NCBI GenBank assembly: GCA_964247135.1 | Contig: CAXTTL010000049.1 | Span: forward strand, 1 to 23,346 | DNA: 23,346 bases | From: an uncultured Deinococcales bacterium | GTDB lineage: Bacteria; Deinococcota; Deinococci; Deinococcales; JAAFIG01 | Reading direction: 5' to 3' | Shown here: positions 1,767 to 6,032 of the stretch, piece by piece | Layout of the letters: each line of letters begins with the position of its first letter | Numbering within the stretch: position 1 is the first letter of the stretch | Made by a program: the position numbers and the translations under genes | The notes under the pieces: model-generated | Told to the model about the DNA's origin: nothing | The model's input: the letters and a program-made list of their open reading frames with translations, nothing else | Databases searched by the model: none

Positions 1767-2737
1767 AGCTTAAAACCGTACCGTAAAAGCCGCTGCTCGA
1801 GTTCGAGGTCTTTGGCGGCTCGAGCGCCAAACCTGGACACCACCCAACCAGCAACCTGCGCGGCGAGTTCGGCGGCGGCGAGTGCATTTTTGGATTGCAA
1901 ATAATGTCCCAAAAACGCGCCACAAAACGCATCACCTGCACCCGTGGCATCGACGGCGGTGTCAATGGTGGCGGCAACTTGAAACGAGTTGTGTCCTTCG
2001 GCGATCAGTGCGCCGTTTTTGTCGAGTTTTAAGACGATCATGGTGTCTGGATACAGGTCTTGCAACGCCTCGAGCACCTCGGTTGGGGTTTTTGCACCCG
2101 TCATGGCGCGTCCTTCTTCTAGGTTTGGAAACAGAAAATCGACGCTCATTTCGCGGGTGGTGCGTCTGAATTCCTCGCGTCCAATTTCGCGGATCATCTG
2201 GTAACTGCCAGGGTCAAAACTGACGCTGGCACCCGCCTCGGTGGCAAGTTTGGCGGCACGCAGCGCGGCTTGGCGCGGCGGGTCGGTAAAGACACTCCAG
2301 GCGGTGATGTGAACGTGGCTCGAGGTTTGAATCGCGGCAATTGGCAGCTCAGTTGGCTCGAGCAAGAAATCTGCGCCCTGCGAGGTGATCATGCTTCGCT
2401 GTCCGCTCGAGTCGATCAAGACCAGAATCACACCGGTCGGGCTGGAATCCGTCCAGATGACGTGCGCTGCCACACCCTCGGCTTCCAGGTCTTGCACGGC
2501 AAACTCGCCAAAACGATCCCGTCCGACCTTTCCCAAAAACCCTGTTGGCATTCCGACCCTTGCTGCCCAAACCGCAACATTGGCGCTCGAGCCTCCTGGC
2601 GCGAGTTGCACGCGTCCTGTGGTGTCACCGCCGGGCAAAATGATTTGGTCGGGTTTGGTCAGCACGTCCCAGGCGAGGTCTCCAACGGCAAGCATGGGGC
2701 GGATAGTGTTTTGGGAATTCACAATGCCGAGAATCAT
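1763..2737 (-). CDS. PfkB/ribokinase-family carbohydrate kinase (start uncertain; GTG at 2722 or a later ATG is possible)
   Basis: N-terminal GGSSANVA...GKVGRDRFG motif and C-terminal DATGAGDAF PfkB signature. Confidence 0.92.
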   Translation of the reverse strand: MILGIVNSQNTIRPMLAVGDLAWDVLTKPDQIILPGGDTTGRVQLAPGGSSANVAVWAARVGMPTGFLGKVGRDRFGEFAVQDLEAEGVAAHVIWTDSSPTGVILVLIDSSGQRSMITSQGADFLLEPTELPIAAIQTSSHVHITAWSVFTDPPRQAALRAAKLATEAGASVSFDPGSYQMIREIGREEFRRTTREMSVDFLFPNLEEGRAMTGAKTPTEVLEALQDLYPDTMIVLKLDKNGALIAEGHNSFQVAATIDTAVDATGAGDAFCGAFLGHYLQSKNALAAAELAAQVAGWVVSRFGARAAKDLELEQRLLRYGFKL

Positions 2738-2809
2738 AACAGTTCAGTTGACGGCGGCTCGAGTAAGCCATTCAACGTAGTCGTACCTCACATTTTCTTA
2801 TGGTTTTCG

Positions 2810-2818
2810 TGCTAATGT
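2810..2818 (+). promoter_or_regulatory. Extended -10 promoter (TG-c-TAATGT) for the short intergenic transcript
   Basis: Matches TGnTAnnnT and predicts a TSS near 2824-2826. No convincing -35. Confidence 0.5.
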
Positions 2819-2824
2819 TTTTGT

Positions 2825-3004
2825 ACACCAGAAAGGGGGTGGTCCAACTGTTAAGCAAAAGATTTATGGTTGGTGGAGGTGCTCGTCGGGGCTAGCTCAA
2901 GCCGTCCCTTTTTTCAGGGCGACTGAATCCCGAATGCGGGCATGGGCATAGTCCCAGACCCAGGCGGGTATCGAAGGAGACCAGAATCATCTGGTCTCTT
3001 TTTT
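2825..3004 (+). ncRNA. Candidate stand-alone small RNA or micro-ORF transcript with extended anti-16S-3'-end element
   Basis: Bounded by a candidate promoter and a strong terminator. Contains AGAAAGGGGGTGGTCCAACTG (2830-2850), a second SD GGAGGTG (2875-2881), a short ORF ending at TAG 2893-2895, and several small hairpins. Confidence 0.55.
2977..3004 (+). terminator. Intrinsic terminator
   Basis: Perfect 9-bp stem GAGACCAGA-ATCA-TCTGGTCTC followed by T6. Confidence 0.88.
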
Positions 3005-3026
3005 ATTGTTGGCATAGAATAGAACC

Positions 3027-3473
3027 GTGAAACTCGAGGATTACACGCTGAATGTGCGTTACCGTGAGGATTGGAATTGTTTTGAAGCCAGCCTGAACGA
3101 ATTTTTTGCGCTGATCGCCAGCGGTCAAACCGAACGGGAAGCCCTGACCGAACTCGAGCGTTTGTACCTCGAGCGCGTGATTTATCTCGAGGCAATTGGC
3201 AAACCGCTGCCGATTCCTGGTGAAGCGCCAGAACCAATGTTTGCCACCAGCGCCAGGGTGGATGCTTTAAGTGGCACGGCAAGGGATTTTTTTCGGCGAG
3301 TATTGAGTTTGGATTACGACGATGTGTTCGTTTCCGACGCCACCAGGCTCGAGGAATTTGGCACGCTGGAATATTTGCGCGAAAAAATCAAACTCGAGTA
3401 CGGTGTGGACATTGGTTTTGACCTCGAGCAACCGCTTTGGGAAGTGCTGGGGAAGATTCGGGGTTTGGCTTAG
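3027..3473 (+). CDS. HicB-like N-terminal domain protein with an uncharacterised C-terminal domain (leaderless)
   Basis: N-terminus 'YTLNVRY.EDWNCFEA...IASGQTEREAL.EL...YLEAIGKPLP.P' fits the HicB partial RNase-H pattern (G.T.EEA...G..lP.P). TAGAAT (3015-3020) lies 6 nt before the GTG. Confidence 0.7.
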   Translation: MKLEDYTLNVRYREDWNCFEASLNEFFALIASGQTEREALTELERLYLERVIYLEAIGKPLPIPGEAPEPMFATSARVDALSGTARDFFRRVLSLDYDDVFVSDATRLEEFGTLEYLREKIKLEYGVDIGFDLEQPLWEVLGKIRGLA

Positions 3474-4096
3474 CCTGCCGTGCGCATCAAGATCAAGACC
3501 AGAACCGTTCCTGCCAAGGCGGTCAGCATTGCCGCAACTCGAGTTTTTTTCATGAACAAGGACAAGCCAAAACCCGTCACTGCCACCAGCAACAAAAATC
3601 CGCCCGACAGGTCAATCAGCCACGCCCAAGGCTTGCCCGAATCGCGTCCTCGGTGAAGGTCGTTTAACACCGCGACTGGTCCTTGCGCCACCACCTTGAG
3701 CGAGTAGGTTCCGTCCTTGATTTCGATGAACGCATCGGCGGCGTAGGCGGGCGCTCGAAAGCTGATGGATGCCTCGTTTTCGTCACTGCGGTGATCGGTC
3801 ACGCTGCCCTTTAAACCGTATTTGGCGCGTAAGGTTTCGGCGGTCGCCAGCCAGTCCACCTTGCCAGATTGCAACCAGGTTTTGGGCATTGTGCCAGTCA
3901 AATTTTGCTCGCTCGAGGCGCTGCCAAAAATCCATTCTGGATGGTTTAAGGTGATGCCTGTGGCAGCAAAGAACACCACCACCAACAGGCTGATCATCGA
4001 GGTGTACAGGTGCAACCAACGCACCAACAAGTACCAACTGCCTCGAGCTTTCGCCGGTTTTTTGGTCTGGATTTTAGCTTCGCTTAAGGTATTCAA
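3470..4096 (-). CDS. PepSY-associated TM helix domain protein
   Basis: Motifs RWLHLYTS...FFAATGITLNHPEW and LNDLHRGRDSG..W.WLID. Sits in the usual operon with DUF2271 and ApbE. Confidence 0.88.
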   Translation of the reverse strand: MNTLSEAKIQTKKPAKARGSWYLLVRWLHLYTSMISLLVVVFFAATGITLNHPEWIFGSASSEQNLTGTMPKTWLQSGKVDWLATAETLRAKYGLKGSVTDHRSDENEASISFRAPAYAADAFIEIKDGTYSLKVVAQGPVAVLNDLHRGRDSGKPWAWLIDLSGGFLLLVAVTGFGLSLFMKKTRVAAMLTALAGTVLVLILMRTAG

Positions 4097-4619
4097 GGTT
4101 CACCGTTTTCAGTTCGCCATCTGGGGTGAAAGATTGCTTTAAAACACTGCTGGTCAGGTTGAGTTTTTCCCTGAACAACTGGTACGGTCCGTGCTCTCGA
4201 GCCATTTCAATGCAGACGTAATACTCGCCTTGGCTCAGCAAATTGCCCTTGTCGTCCTTGCCGTCCCAGGTCAGGCTGTACTTGCCAGGTTGACGGGTTG
4301 GGCTTGAAACGGTAGTCGTTAGGTTGCCGCTGCGATACCAGCGTTTGAGTTCGTTGAGCCAACGCGAACCCTTACCAGATTGCTCGAACCACAATGCCAG
4401 TGTGCGGACTTGTGCGCCCTGGGCATTCTCGAGCCAGACCGCGACATACGGCGGGTGATACCCAAAACTACCCGCGCCAACGATTTCAAATCCGATGTCG
4501 AGTTTCATGGCGCTCGAGAGTTTCGCGGCTTGCGCCAAGCTTTTACCGACCAGCAAGGTCAAGGCTGCGCCCGTGGCTTGGAAGAGAAAGCTTCTGCGGC
4601 TGATTTGACTTTGTTTCAT
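4074..4619 (-). CDS. DUF2271 domain protein with Tat signal peptide
   Basis: Start revised to ATG 4619 (ATGA overlap with the upstream stop). Twin-arginine signal SRRSFL. Motifs PYVAVW.E...RTL.LW, WDGKDDKG and E.AREHG. Confidence 0.88.
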   Translation of the reverse strand: MKQSQISRRSFLFQATGAALTLLVGKSLAQAAKLSSAMKLDIGFEIVGAGSFGYHPPYVAVWLENAQGAQVRTLALWFEQSGKGSRWLNELKRWYRSGNLTTTVSSPTRQPGKYSLTWDGKDDKGNLLSQGEYYVCIEMAREHGPYQLFREKLNLTSSVLKQSFTPDGELKTVNLEYLKRS

Positions 4620-5512
4620 GATCTGACCTCCGTTGTCTGTAAGGCTTGAAAACTTTGATTTATTAGGACTTCCCCTGCAACTGTGACCAATAAACAACCG
4701 ACTTGCGAAGATTCGGTGAACGCCAAACTTTCCTGGGCTTCGAGCACACAGCAGATCGTGGCGATCACGTCGGCGCTGGCGGCATCGGGCGCGATGATCG
4801 TGACCTGGGCAATCTCGGTCACGGCTTTGGCGGCTCGAGGGTCGAAAATATGTGCCCCTCGGTGGGTGTGTCCGCTGGTTGCCACGCCCTGATTTTGAAT
4901 CCGAACTCGAGTCAATTCTGGAGCGTTGTCGGCTTTGGAAAATGGGTGGGCAATTGCGACCTCGAGCGTTCCAGTTCCACGGTGGCACAGATCGCCACCC
5001 AGGTTGACCAGCACTTCTTGCACTCCCTCGAGTTTGAAAGCGGCATTCACGGCTTGATCGGCGATTCGTCCTTTTGCCAGCGCATTAAAGTTGAGTTTGT
5101 GCGCGGTCAGTTTTTGGACTTGGTTTTCTTGCCAAATCCAGAGCGGATGTTGCACATCCTCGAGTTGTTCTTGGCGACGAATCGAATCATGGATTGCGGG
5201 ATGAAACGCGCCGTGGCTGATGTGCTGCCAGTGTTCTGCCGCCTCGAGCAACCAGCGCAAATCGGTTGACGGTGTCATGTTTCCTGCGGTTTGCCAACGG
5301 TTGAGTTCGCTTTCGGGCAAGAAATAACTGTAGACCCGCTCGAGCCTGGCAATTTCCTCGAGAATGGCATGTTCGGCTTTCAAGGCGGTGGCGTGGTTGT
5401 CCACCAGCAATTGCAACTCCAATGCCGTGCCAAGAATCCCTTCAAAACGCGCTTGGTGTTGCAACGCTCGAGGTTTAAAGAATTTTTTGATCGCTGGCAA
5501 AACCGAATTCAC
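4616..5512 (-). CDS. apbE: FAD:protein FMN transferase (ApbE family)
   Basis: Motifs LGT.LEL, SELNR, FNALAKG...D, VNLGGDL, ATSG...HIFDPR and AD..AT. Start revised to GTG 5512, which follows the SD AAGGAGG. Confidence 0.88.
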   Translation of the reverse strand: MNSVLPAIKKFFKPRALQHQARFEGILGTALELQLLVDNHATALKAEHAILEEIARLERVYSYFLPESELNRWQTAGNMTPSTDLRWLLEAAEHWQHISHGAFHPAIHDSIRRQEQLEDVQHPLWIWQENQVQKLTAHKLNFNALAKGRIADQAVNAAFKLEGVQEVLVNLGGDLCHRGTGTLEVAIAHPFSKADNAPELTRVRIQNQGVATSGHTHRGAHIFDPRAAKAVTEIAQVTIIAPDAASADVIATICCVLEAQESLAFTESSQVGCLLVTVAGEVLINQSFQALQTTEVRS

Positions 5513-5535
5513 GGGGCTGACCTCCTTGGTGGTGA

Positions 5536-5568
5536 ATCTTAAAATCCAAGGGTAACAGTTCGGTAACA
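5536..5568 (-). promoter_or_regulatory. apbE operon promoter: -10 TAAGAT with a TGTTACC direct repeat (11-bp period) over the -35 region
   Basis: GGTAACA at 5551-5557 and 5562-5568 on the + strand; ATCTTA at 5536-5541. Confidence 0.55.
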
Positions 5569-5576
5569 ACGCAACG

Positions 5577-6032
5577 TCACTTGTGATACGGTTCGCCGCG
5601 TTCCAGGGTTGCGGCACGGTACAATGCCTCGAGCATCACGAGTTGCGCCAGATCGTGCGGCATGGTCAGGCTCGAGAGTGACCACATCAGGCGAACGCTG
5701 GCGCGTACCTCGTCCGAGAGTCCTTCGTCGCCGCCGACCAGAAACGCCAGCTCACCCTCGCCATTCACGCCCAAACTCGAGATTTGGGCTGTGAGGTTCT
5801 CAGTCGTGAACTGTTTTCCGCGCGGGTCAAGCGCAATCGTGTACGCCCGTCCTGCCGCCTCGAGAAGTGCTTGCCCCTCCTCGAGCATCGCGGTTTCGCC
5901 AGTTCGTTTGGAATCTTTTACTCGGGTGACTTTCAGTTTGTGATACCGCTCGAGGCGTTTTAAGTACAAGCCGCAACCAATTTTGGCGTACTCGTGTTTG
6001 GGTTCTCCGACCGTGATGATGTGCAAACGCAT
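5577..6032 (-). CDS. rlmH: 23S rRNA (pseudouridine1915-N3)-methyltransferase
   Basis: SPOUT motifs ALDPRGKQFT, F.VGG..GL, SLS.LTMPH and YRA......PYHK; 151 aa. Confidence 0.95.
   Translation of the reverse strand: MRLHIITVGEPKHEYAKIGCGLYLKRLERYHKLKVTRVKDSKRTGETAMLEEGQALLEAAGRAYTIALDPRGKQFTTENLTAQISSLGVNGEGELAFLVGGDEGLSDEVRASVRLMWSLSSLTMPHDLAQLVMLEALYRAATLERGEPYHK

Follow-up and report, generated by a model that had tools for sequence, protein, structure and literature searches.

A putative small mRNA with an over-long Shine-Dalgarno sequence conserved in the Deinococcales

Contig CAXTTL010000049.1 of an uncultured Deinococcales bacterium (assembly GCA_964247135.1; 23,346 nt, hereafter the window) carries, between positions 2810 and 3005, a promoter-like motif and an intrinsic terminator enclosing about 180 nt that hold no normal gene and that open with an unusually long complement of the 16S rRNA 3' end. 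This raises the question of what kind of RNA such a locus might produce. A reading of the sequence alone had proposed either an RNA that captures ribosomes or a micropeptide mRNA with unusual initiation, and the comparative evidence presented here favours a blend of the two, that is, a small mRNA-like RNA with an over-long Shine-Dalgarno (SD) sequence. Judging from sequence features and by analogy with described RNAs, we consider it probable that the element is a stand-alone small mRNA of the rreB/Ms_IGR-5 type, about 180 nt long, which would bind ribosomes.

Conservation and distribution of the element

The element (2825-3005, forward strand) is predicted from its sequence to be a single-copy, stand-alone unit running from promoter to terminator. 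BLAST searches recovered it at 97-99% identity over about 205 nt in five of five genomes of the same genus; of the 13 other genomes of the same family (f1), 12 presented its 5' 70-90 nt, at 77-87% identity. R1, a covariance model built on the 5' 72 nt, was searched against 151 Deinococcales genomes and yielded matches in 17/18 genomes of f1, 35/37 of family f2, 1/36 of f3, 1/23 of f4 and 8/36 of f5. A second search in f3 (40 genomes) identified the element in 12 of the 14 genomes from genera other than g7, and in none of the 26 genomes of g7. The f4 and f5 matches (22-24 bits) presented neither SD nor terminator and lay in coding-like DNA; they were discarded as spurious after inspection of the single f4 match and of seven of the eight in f5, that of G058 being left out. 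All true matches occur once per genome, including the one R1 match in the metagenome-assembled genome that carries the window (G000; 386 contigs, 84% complete), and a second match in G006 (E 0.007, 23.4 bits) falls within the weak range. Promoter, terminator and the stretch between them are kept in 64 genomes, of which 18 belong to f1, 35 to f2 and a further 11 to f3, and the comparisons below draw on a set of 66 sequences, 56 of them unique over the analysed region. Conservation in relatives, on which the sequence-only reading had made its proposal depend, is hence borne out as near-universal, single-copy presence in f1, f2 and the non-g7 genera of f3.

The conserved region is delimited by signals on both sides. 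In 65 of the 66 loci, the conserved 5' A is preceded by a -10-like hexamer (TANNNT) whose last base lies 5-9 nt upstream, and exactly 6 nt upstream in 63; the TG extension of this motif is present in 22/66. At the other end, a stem followed by a T-run was read by eye at the same place in the printed homologues, where the stem sequences are unrelated. Together, promoter motif and terminator make the element what would be a short, stand-alone transcript-like unit, as is characteristic of rre-type RNAs.

Pattern searches returned additional candidates that were set aside. The five g7 matches to AAGGAGGTGGTCC, the GGTCC matches to the pattern AAGGAGGTGRTCC in f3, correspond to ordinary gene starts or coding DNA; the GATCC matches to the latter pattern in f3 were interpreted as 16S genes read in antisense. 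In a loose pattern scan of contigs, 12 loci among at least 120 passed a stricter regular expression. Nine of these were real, all of them from Deinococcales/Deinococcaceae, and three were chance matches.

Complementarity to 16S rRNA, reading frame and fold

No 16S gene is assembled in any contig of G000, so the two identical copies of a complete genome from the same family (G011), ending ...GCGGUUGGAUCACCUCCUUUCU, were used as reference; 16S genes were likewise not found in G005, G009 and G007. Positions 2830-2851 pair with the G011 tail over 22 consecutive positions, a run that comprises 18 Watson-Crick and four G-U pairs, and is thus not a perfect Watson-Crick duplex, with a 16S rRNA of the same family rather than of the same genome. 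In an ungapped scan of 10,167,192 positions on both strands of G000, this site was the single best, followed by pairable runs of 19 and 17 and then five of 16, which substantiates the over-long complementarity initially noticed. Carriers in f2 and f3 also present at least 16 nt of complementarity to their own 16S rRNA, as rre-type RNAs do across the SD, and predicted duplex energies with the genome's own 16S amount to -35.4 (G011), -35.2 (G133), -27.7 (G019), -27.2 (G059) and -25.6 kcal/mol (G031). The proposed reach into helix 45 fared less uniformly: f1 and f3 retain the CCAACTG segment directed toward it, but f2, in which pairing ends after 16 nt, does not, and this segment is therefore not part of the core. 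Within the complementarity, AGAAAGGG is predicted to be unpaired (P 0.84-0.98) in 18 f1 RNAs, and the remainder to be paired.

Since runs of 15-19 pairable bases sit at normal gene starts elsewhere in G000, the locus might be taken for an ordinary strong ribosome-binding site, or for a chance intergenic match. The site is, however, a unique outlier (22 against the next 19) followed by no normal gene, and the element that contains it is conserved from promoter to terminator across the 64 genomes. Conservation and genome-wide uniqueness refute this explanation, to which we attach practically no probability.

Downstream of the SD core, the frame that starts 7-9 nt after it is open to a fixed stop in 54 of the 56 unique sequences, versus 12/56 and 26/56 for the other two frames. 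This open reading frame (ORF) spans 13-15 codons. The codon at the putative start position is AUU in 21 sequences, CUG in 19, AUA in six, AUC in six and UUG in two (G167 and L052/G163, one codon later), and never AUG or GUG. In the window, CUG 2848-2850 lies within the 16S complementarity, so that the ORF is placed as in rre-type RNAs, with a near-cognate start. All three stop codons are used (UAA 31, UAG 22, UGA 3), and in 54 sequences the distance from the second SD's GGU codon to the stop is exactly 15 nt, with G144 presenting UGA there. Loop indels of +3 preserve the frame; in g19, indels of -1, +1 and +2 upstream of AUU leave the AUU frame intact and break that of the GUG inside the SD. 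The suggestion of a micropeptide mRNA is thus supported as regards the conservation of the CUG-started frame, but not as regards ATG 2866, the canonical codon that had been considered as its start: a canonical start occurs at that position in 25 of 54 rows.

The second SD noted just upstream of the stop also withstood comparison. Its AGGT (alignment columns 60-63) is invariant in the 53 aligned sequences, including two third codon positions, and the two G residues that precede it vary only in g2 (GUAGGU) and G103 (GAAGGU). The ORF starts in hairpin P1, crosses the second SD and follows the entire 5' strand of the long-range helix P2/P2b. The N-terminal half of the encoded peptide varies freely, and its C-terminal eight residues (...V/T-G/S-G-G-A/T-R-R-G) are conserved across f1-f3. 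Because this conserved half coincides with bases that are fixed even at synonymous sites, we read the pattern as selection for being translated through, and not for the peptide.

The conserved C-terminal residues could alternatively mean that the 13-15-residue peptide is itself the product that matters, and the peptides of rreB and of its relative rreR, which show no similarity to each other, are each conserved within their clades according to the available text of PMC5711450. Yet the conserved half overlaps both the invariant AGGU, with its two synonymous positions, and helix P2, while the other half drifts; the frame shift in g2 gives a different peptide; and the actinobacterial relatives discussed below read the shared GAGGUG in another frame (..TREVAAR). 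In addition, synthetic RreB and RreR were unstructured and overproduction was without phenotype (PMC5711450, available text). We regard a peptide-centred function as very unlikely.

The long-range helix is the structural feature best supported by comparison. In 53 sequences, 89.8% of 793 P2/P2b cells are paired, versus 40-50% when the partner strand is slid by 1-3 columns, and the covariation score of 0.269 (0.198 +/- 0.010 in shuffles) was reached in none of 500 shuffles. Five pairs change on both sides; one of the P2/P2b pairs is A-U in 20 sequences and G-C in 13, and another is G-U in 26, A-U in 12 and G-C in 12. Covariation, which had been named as a check on the element, is thus present, although in a helix other than those first drawn: the sequence taken for a small hairpin, ACCC-AGGC-GGGT, is better assigned to P2, of which it would supply the 3' strand (2963-2972 with 2878-2887). 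The whole 181-nt RNA has a predicted minimum free energy (MFE) of -72.0 kcal/mol, compared to -57.5 +/- 4.3 kcal/mol in shuffles (z -3.39; 0/200 as low).

Hairpins P0 and P1 can form in every family, with registers that differ between f2 and f1/f3. P0 is paired in 13/13 f1 rows and the five inner pairs of P1 in 23/23 rows of f1 and f3, and f2 presents a hairpin at the place of P1 in another register (UGGUC/GACCA; 28-30 of 30). As a separate observation, in f2 (for instance L168, G031, 1440-1572) P0 and P1 compete for the same GUGGUC bases and cannot coexist, which may constitute a switch in these predicted folds; in the predicted MFE structure of G031, the SD core GGAAAGGAGG forms a 10-nt bulge between two stacked stems. 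The apical region (2893-2950) differs in length and sequence between genera and is nearly absent in the short f3 forms. Its MAFFT alignment is unreliable, and no structure is claimed for it.

As an alternative, the element might be a purely non-coding structured small RNA (sRNA), in which the SD-like boxes would be structural strands or seeds for other RNAs, pairing for instance with an internal CCUCC-type segment or with C/U-rich partners, and the frame would be incidental. An internal GCCUCC-like box in many f1 and f2 members (alignment columns 141-146) can be paired by hand with the 5' GGAGGUG, showing what appear by eye to be compensatory changes (GGAGG:CCUCU versus GGGGG:CCCU; GGUGGU:ACCGCC versus GGUGAU:AUCGCC). 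The conserved bases are RNA-level, and the rreB SD is also largely paired internally (PMC5711450, available text). In contrast, the frame-specific openness, the frame-keeping indels and the use of three different stops at one position would not be expected without translation, and the short f3 forms lack the internal box yet retain all the other features. On balance, we find a non-coding RNA unlikely, and the sequence features indicate that the RNA is not purely non-coding but a small mRNA-like transcript.

Proposed mechanism and genomic setting

For the small mRNA favoured here, the following course can be envisaged. The RNA would be transcribed from its own sigma-70-type promoter and end at its own terminator. 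Its exposed A/G-rich 5' seed would nucleate pairing with the last bases of 16S rRNA, and the duplex would then spread over the whole free 16S tail, covering 16 nt in every family and up to 22 nt here. The 30S subunit would thereby be tethered much more firmly than by an ordinary SD. With a near-cognate start 8 bases after the SD core (CUG here; AUU, AUA or AUC in f2), the combination of over-long SD and weak start would keep initiation rare and, by analogy, probably sensitive to the availability of initiation factors and 30S subunits. An initiating ribosome would read 15 codons, unzipping P1 and the whole 5' strand of P2/P2b, and would terminate 12 nt after the invariant second SD. Ribosome traffic, and not the peptide, would in this manner set the conformation and lifetime of the RNA.

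Several points weigh against this proposal. We infer from sequence that a transcript exists in the Deinococcales, binds the 30S subunit and is weakly translated, and the same holds for its reliance on initiation factors and for any effect further downstream. Changes in the RNA that compensate for changes in 16S rRNA were not seen; CCAGC, which is also present in genus g5, lies opposite GGUUGG in G133 and forms a G-U pair there. The mature 16S end is presumably ...UUUCU, as in Thermus-type rRNA, and the Rfam model stops two bases earlier; pairing past 16 nt would need helix 45 of 16S rRNA to be opened. Complementarity beyond 16 nt may simply reflect hairpin P1, and the columns of P0 and P1 hardly vary, so that they provide no covariation support. 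The two g2 genomes (G006 and G010) are exceptions to the conserved frame: their loop is 2 nt shorter and places CUG in another frame, and their ORF, read by eye and identical in both, has 23 codons, a different C-terminus and a later stop, which implies that neither the peptide nor the exact stop position is universal. In 47 of 54 rows the GUG within the SD shares this frame, so that the near-cognate codon is a putative start. Finally, overexpression of rreB, whose function is unknown, gave no growth phenotype (PMC5711450, available text), which makes plain ribosome sequestration doubtful.

The features of the window copy are compiled in Table 1. The extended -10, the terminator, the codons and the second SD all lie where the sequence-only reading had placed them.

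Table 1. Predicted features of the element in the window.
Feature	Position	Strand	Evidence
Extended -10 promoter, TG-c-TAATGT (TG-n-TAATGT type)	2810-2818	+	Sequence motif
Predicted transcription start, A; conserved 5' block ACACC begins here	2825	+	Sequence
Whole RNA	2825-3005	+	R1 match 2825-2899, same-genus identity, fold z-score
Small 5' hairpin P0, CACC (2826-2829) with GGUG (2838-2841); loop presents AGAAAGGG	2826-2841	+	Predicted fold
Extended SD, complement of the 16S 3' end, AGAAAGGGGGTGGTCCAACTG (2830-2850); AGAAAGGGGGTGGTCCAACTGT (2830-2851)	2830-2850; 2830-2851	+	Pairing with G011 16S tail
SD core GGGGG	2835-2839	+	Inside extended SD
Hairpin P1, CCAACTGT (2844-2851) with ATGGTTGG (2866-2873); loop variable, A/U-rich	2844-2873	+	Predicted fold
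Putative micro-ORF CUG...UAG, 15 codons, LLSKRFMVGGGARRG	2848-2895	+	Frame open across homologues
Codons CTG; ATG; TAG	2848; 2866; 2893-2895	+	Sequence
Second, in-frame SD GGAGGTG, 12 nt upstream of stop; its GGUG also opens P2	2875-2881	+	Conserved AGGT
Long-range helix, 5' strands: P2 (2878-2887), P2b (2888-2892)	2878-2892	+	Pairing and covariation
Variable apical region with small hairpins, e.g. CCCGAATGCGGG (2930-2941)	2893-2950	+	Varies between genera
Long-range helix, 3' strands: P2b (2951-2955), P2 (2963-2972)	2951-2972	+	Pairing and covariation
Intrinsic terminator, 13-pair stem (2973-3002), then T-run	2973-3005	+	Sequence

The element is preceded by a pfkB-family kinase gene on the opposite strand (1763-2737), and a pfkB kinase is also its upstream neighbour in f1. 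Downstream, an ORF of 148 codons for which no Pfam family was detected (3027-3473, forward strand) presents first codons that are conserved in six same-genus genomes. The terminator ends 22 nt before this same-strand ORF, an arrangement kept in the six genomes of that genus (g1), and a micro-ORF followed by a terminator resembles leader-peptide attenuation, as would suit a cis-acting leader or attenuator of the following gene. However, the neighbours change between genera, with no conserved same-strand downstream gene: in 30 genomes of f2, the element is followed by a BioY gene on the opposite strand, and a gene for an Fe-S/CCG protein lies divergently upstream in f2, which denotes a stand-alone gene and not a leader. 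Furthermore, some 80 nt separate the stop codon from the terminator, and no antiterminator is evident. A leader function was hence rejected on synteny, and we consider it highly improbable.

Further along the window, a run of three genes on the reverse strand (3470-5617) encodes PepSY_TM-like, DUF2271 plus FlgD_ig, and ApbE domains. The palindrome CTCGAG occurs 168 times in the 23,346 nt, versus 4.85 expected (e.g. 2758-2763 and 3033-3038), and not once inside the small RNA. With 33,925 copies it is the commonest hexamer of G000, at 24.7 times the mononucleotide expectation, and the same 5.09 Mb contain GAGCTC 0, GGGCCC 1, CGGCCG 3 and AGGCCT 4 times. Several f2 terminator stems (e.g. in G031, G019, G027, G132 and G147) are built around CTCGAG, echoing this genome-wide excess.

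Relationship to known RNAs

No Rfam family reached its gathering score anywhere in the window, and a permissive scan of 2700-3100 returned only a chance miRNA match on the other strand. Equivalent scans of relatives produced full-length, sub-threshold alignments to two families only. The f2 elements of G031 and G019 aligned over their full length to Ms_IGR-5 (RF02471) at 29.6 and 28.8 bits, below the gathering score of 45, and the window copy gave no match to it at E<=10. The short f3 form of G133 aligned over its full length to CC2171 (RF01867) at 30.1 bits, below the gathering score of 75, and the window again gave no match. The consensus sequences of both families open with the same extended SD. 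The initial impression that the element belongs to no named family is therefore accurate in terms of gathering scores, but its architecture is that of the rre small mRNAs, Ms_IGR-5 and CC2171.

A single study has described small mRNAs whose SD spans the entire free 16S tail, in the Alphaproteobacteria. In the available text of that study (Hahn et al., RNA Biol 2016/17, PMC5711450), Bradyrhizobium rreB, a small mRNA of 165 nt, matches the complement of the 16S 3' end perfectly over 17 nt, encodes 14 codons from a GUG start and co-sediments with 30S subunits. Its translation is weak owing to both the long SD and the GUG start, and changing the start codon to a stop stabilises the RNA. Within the complementarity, no more than the initial 5 nt are predicted to be free, and these were proposed to act as a seed. 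Analogues found by BLASTN were reported from four alphaproteobacterial orders only, among them the Caulobacterales, and Rfam, CC2171, Actinobacteria and Deinococcus are not mentioned in that text.

The Deinococcales element resembles rreB and rreR in being, as far as can be predicted, a transcript of about 165-180 nt that stands alone between a promoter and a terminator of its own; in presenting at least 16-17 nt of 16S complementarity, of which only the first few bases are predicted to form a single-stranded seed; in a very short ORF whose weak start codon lies at the end of this complementarity or overlaps it; and in a genomic context that is not conserved across clades. It differs in belonging to another phylum, in its CUG, AUU, AUA or AUC start in place of GUG, in the G-U pairs that most Deinococcales members carry in their complementarity, in its second in-frame SD and in an ORF that follows one strand of a long helix supported by covariation. 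The peptides are not similar, and 30S binding has been demonstrated for rreB only. Loci from Bradyrhizobium (L209, 14 codons) and Rhodobacteraceae (L212, 18 codons) show the published rre forms, with which only the SD region aligns: R1 scores L209, L212 and L211 at 9.9, 13.0 and 5.4 bits, respectively, and does not match L210 at E<=10.

The second comparison is with Ms_IGR-5, which is expressed in M. smegmatis and Streptomyces and has been termed 'validated but yet uncharacterized' (PMC8079986, PMC8780764, 10.1101/2021.12.14.472595, PMC10454040); the available parts of this literature report expression only, and no description of an SD or ORF was found in them. The family matched five of five actinobacterial genomes at 75-102 bits and, in a sample of the phylum, 18/61 genomes, nine of them over the cut-off (15/58 and 8/58 without three unpublished genomes). 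Leaving out the three unpublished genomes, we read 20 loci from 19 genomes (L204-L208, L265-L270, L272-L274, L276-L280 and L282). All 20 present the extended SD, a hairpin, GAGGUG and then a stop 14-15 nt after the start of GAGGUG. Their ORFs have 10-13 codons and start 8-11 nt after the SD core with AUG (6), UUG (7), CUG (5) or AUU (2). One genome, G194, holds two copies (L274 and L282; 43.9 and 41.1 bits), versus one true copy per Deinococcales carrier.

Compared by eye and by script, and not through a joint model, the two architectures agree in the 5' ACAC..GGAAGGAGGUGGUCC, the hairpin, the long-range helix opened by GAGGUG and closed by ..CACC, and the terminator. The CUG or AUU start at +8 of the Deinococcales recurs in 7/20 loci, G188 has an f2-like ACCAC...AGUGGAGGUGG form, and the scores of the two f2 elements lie in the range of divergent actinobacterial members (27-35 bits). 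They differ in the peptide frame through the shared box, and R1 finds all five actinobacterial sites, but at 7-15 bits only. Common descent of the Deinococcales element and Ms_IGR-5 is plausible, short of established. From these sequence features, it is probable that Ms_IGR-5 is itself a tiny mRNA and not non-coding, and no paper describing it as such was found.

CC2171, a Caulobacter sRNA, has been confirmed by Northern blot in Methylorubrum (10.1101/2022.01.24.477521, available text). Its consensus begins ..GAAAGGAGGUGAUCCAGUG and aligns to the short f3 form noted above; unlike the Deinococcales element, it starts with GUG, lacks a second SD and carries an ORF that is longer and unrelated. 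CC2171 is probably the Caulobacter rre family, given that rre analogues are reported from the Caulobacterales in the available text of PMC5711450. Our literature search found no follow-up to rreB, no link between Ms_IGR-5 and rre, and no Deinococcales member in print, a point on which the supplements of PMC5711450 (rre alignments and lists) may bear. Exact-match searches missed such RNAs because most carry G-U pairs.

A more distant parallel is provided by infC, which has a non-AUG start (AUU) sensed by initiation factor 3. By analogy, the near-cognate start of the Deinococcales element may tie its initiation to the fidelity function of the initiation machinery. Unlike infC, which encodes the factor, the element has no link to any factor gene.

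These comparisons suggest a bolder, tentative idea, to which we give a limited chance of being right: that the Deinococcales RNA, Ms_IGR-5 and rre/CC2171 form one ancient class, shared between phyla, of ribosome-tethering micro-ORF RNAs that gauge or buffer idle small subunits, rather than acting as messengers. The over-long SD would capture free 30S subunits, the weak start would report on free 30S, initiation factor 3 and initiator tRNA, and the passage of a ribosome through the second SD and P2 would make the RNA alternate between a closed form and one that is open or degraded.

Overall, a design described in one alphaproteobacterial group is near-universal and single-copy in three Deinococcales families, is common to an uncharacterised actinobacterial Rfam family, and recurs with near-cognate starts and a second in-frame SD. 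For these reasons, the results suggest that this way of engaging the small ribosomal subunit is widespread and under selection, and not a curiosity of one clade. They also flag two Rfam 'sRNA' families, Ms_IGR-5 and CC2171, as probable tiny mRNAs, and cultured, genetically tractable carriers are now available in three phyla. The Deinococcales element extends the rre-like design to a new phylum, and is of a kind that is known from rreB but has barely been studied.

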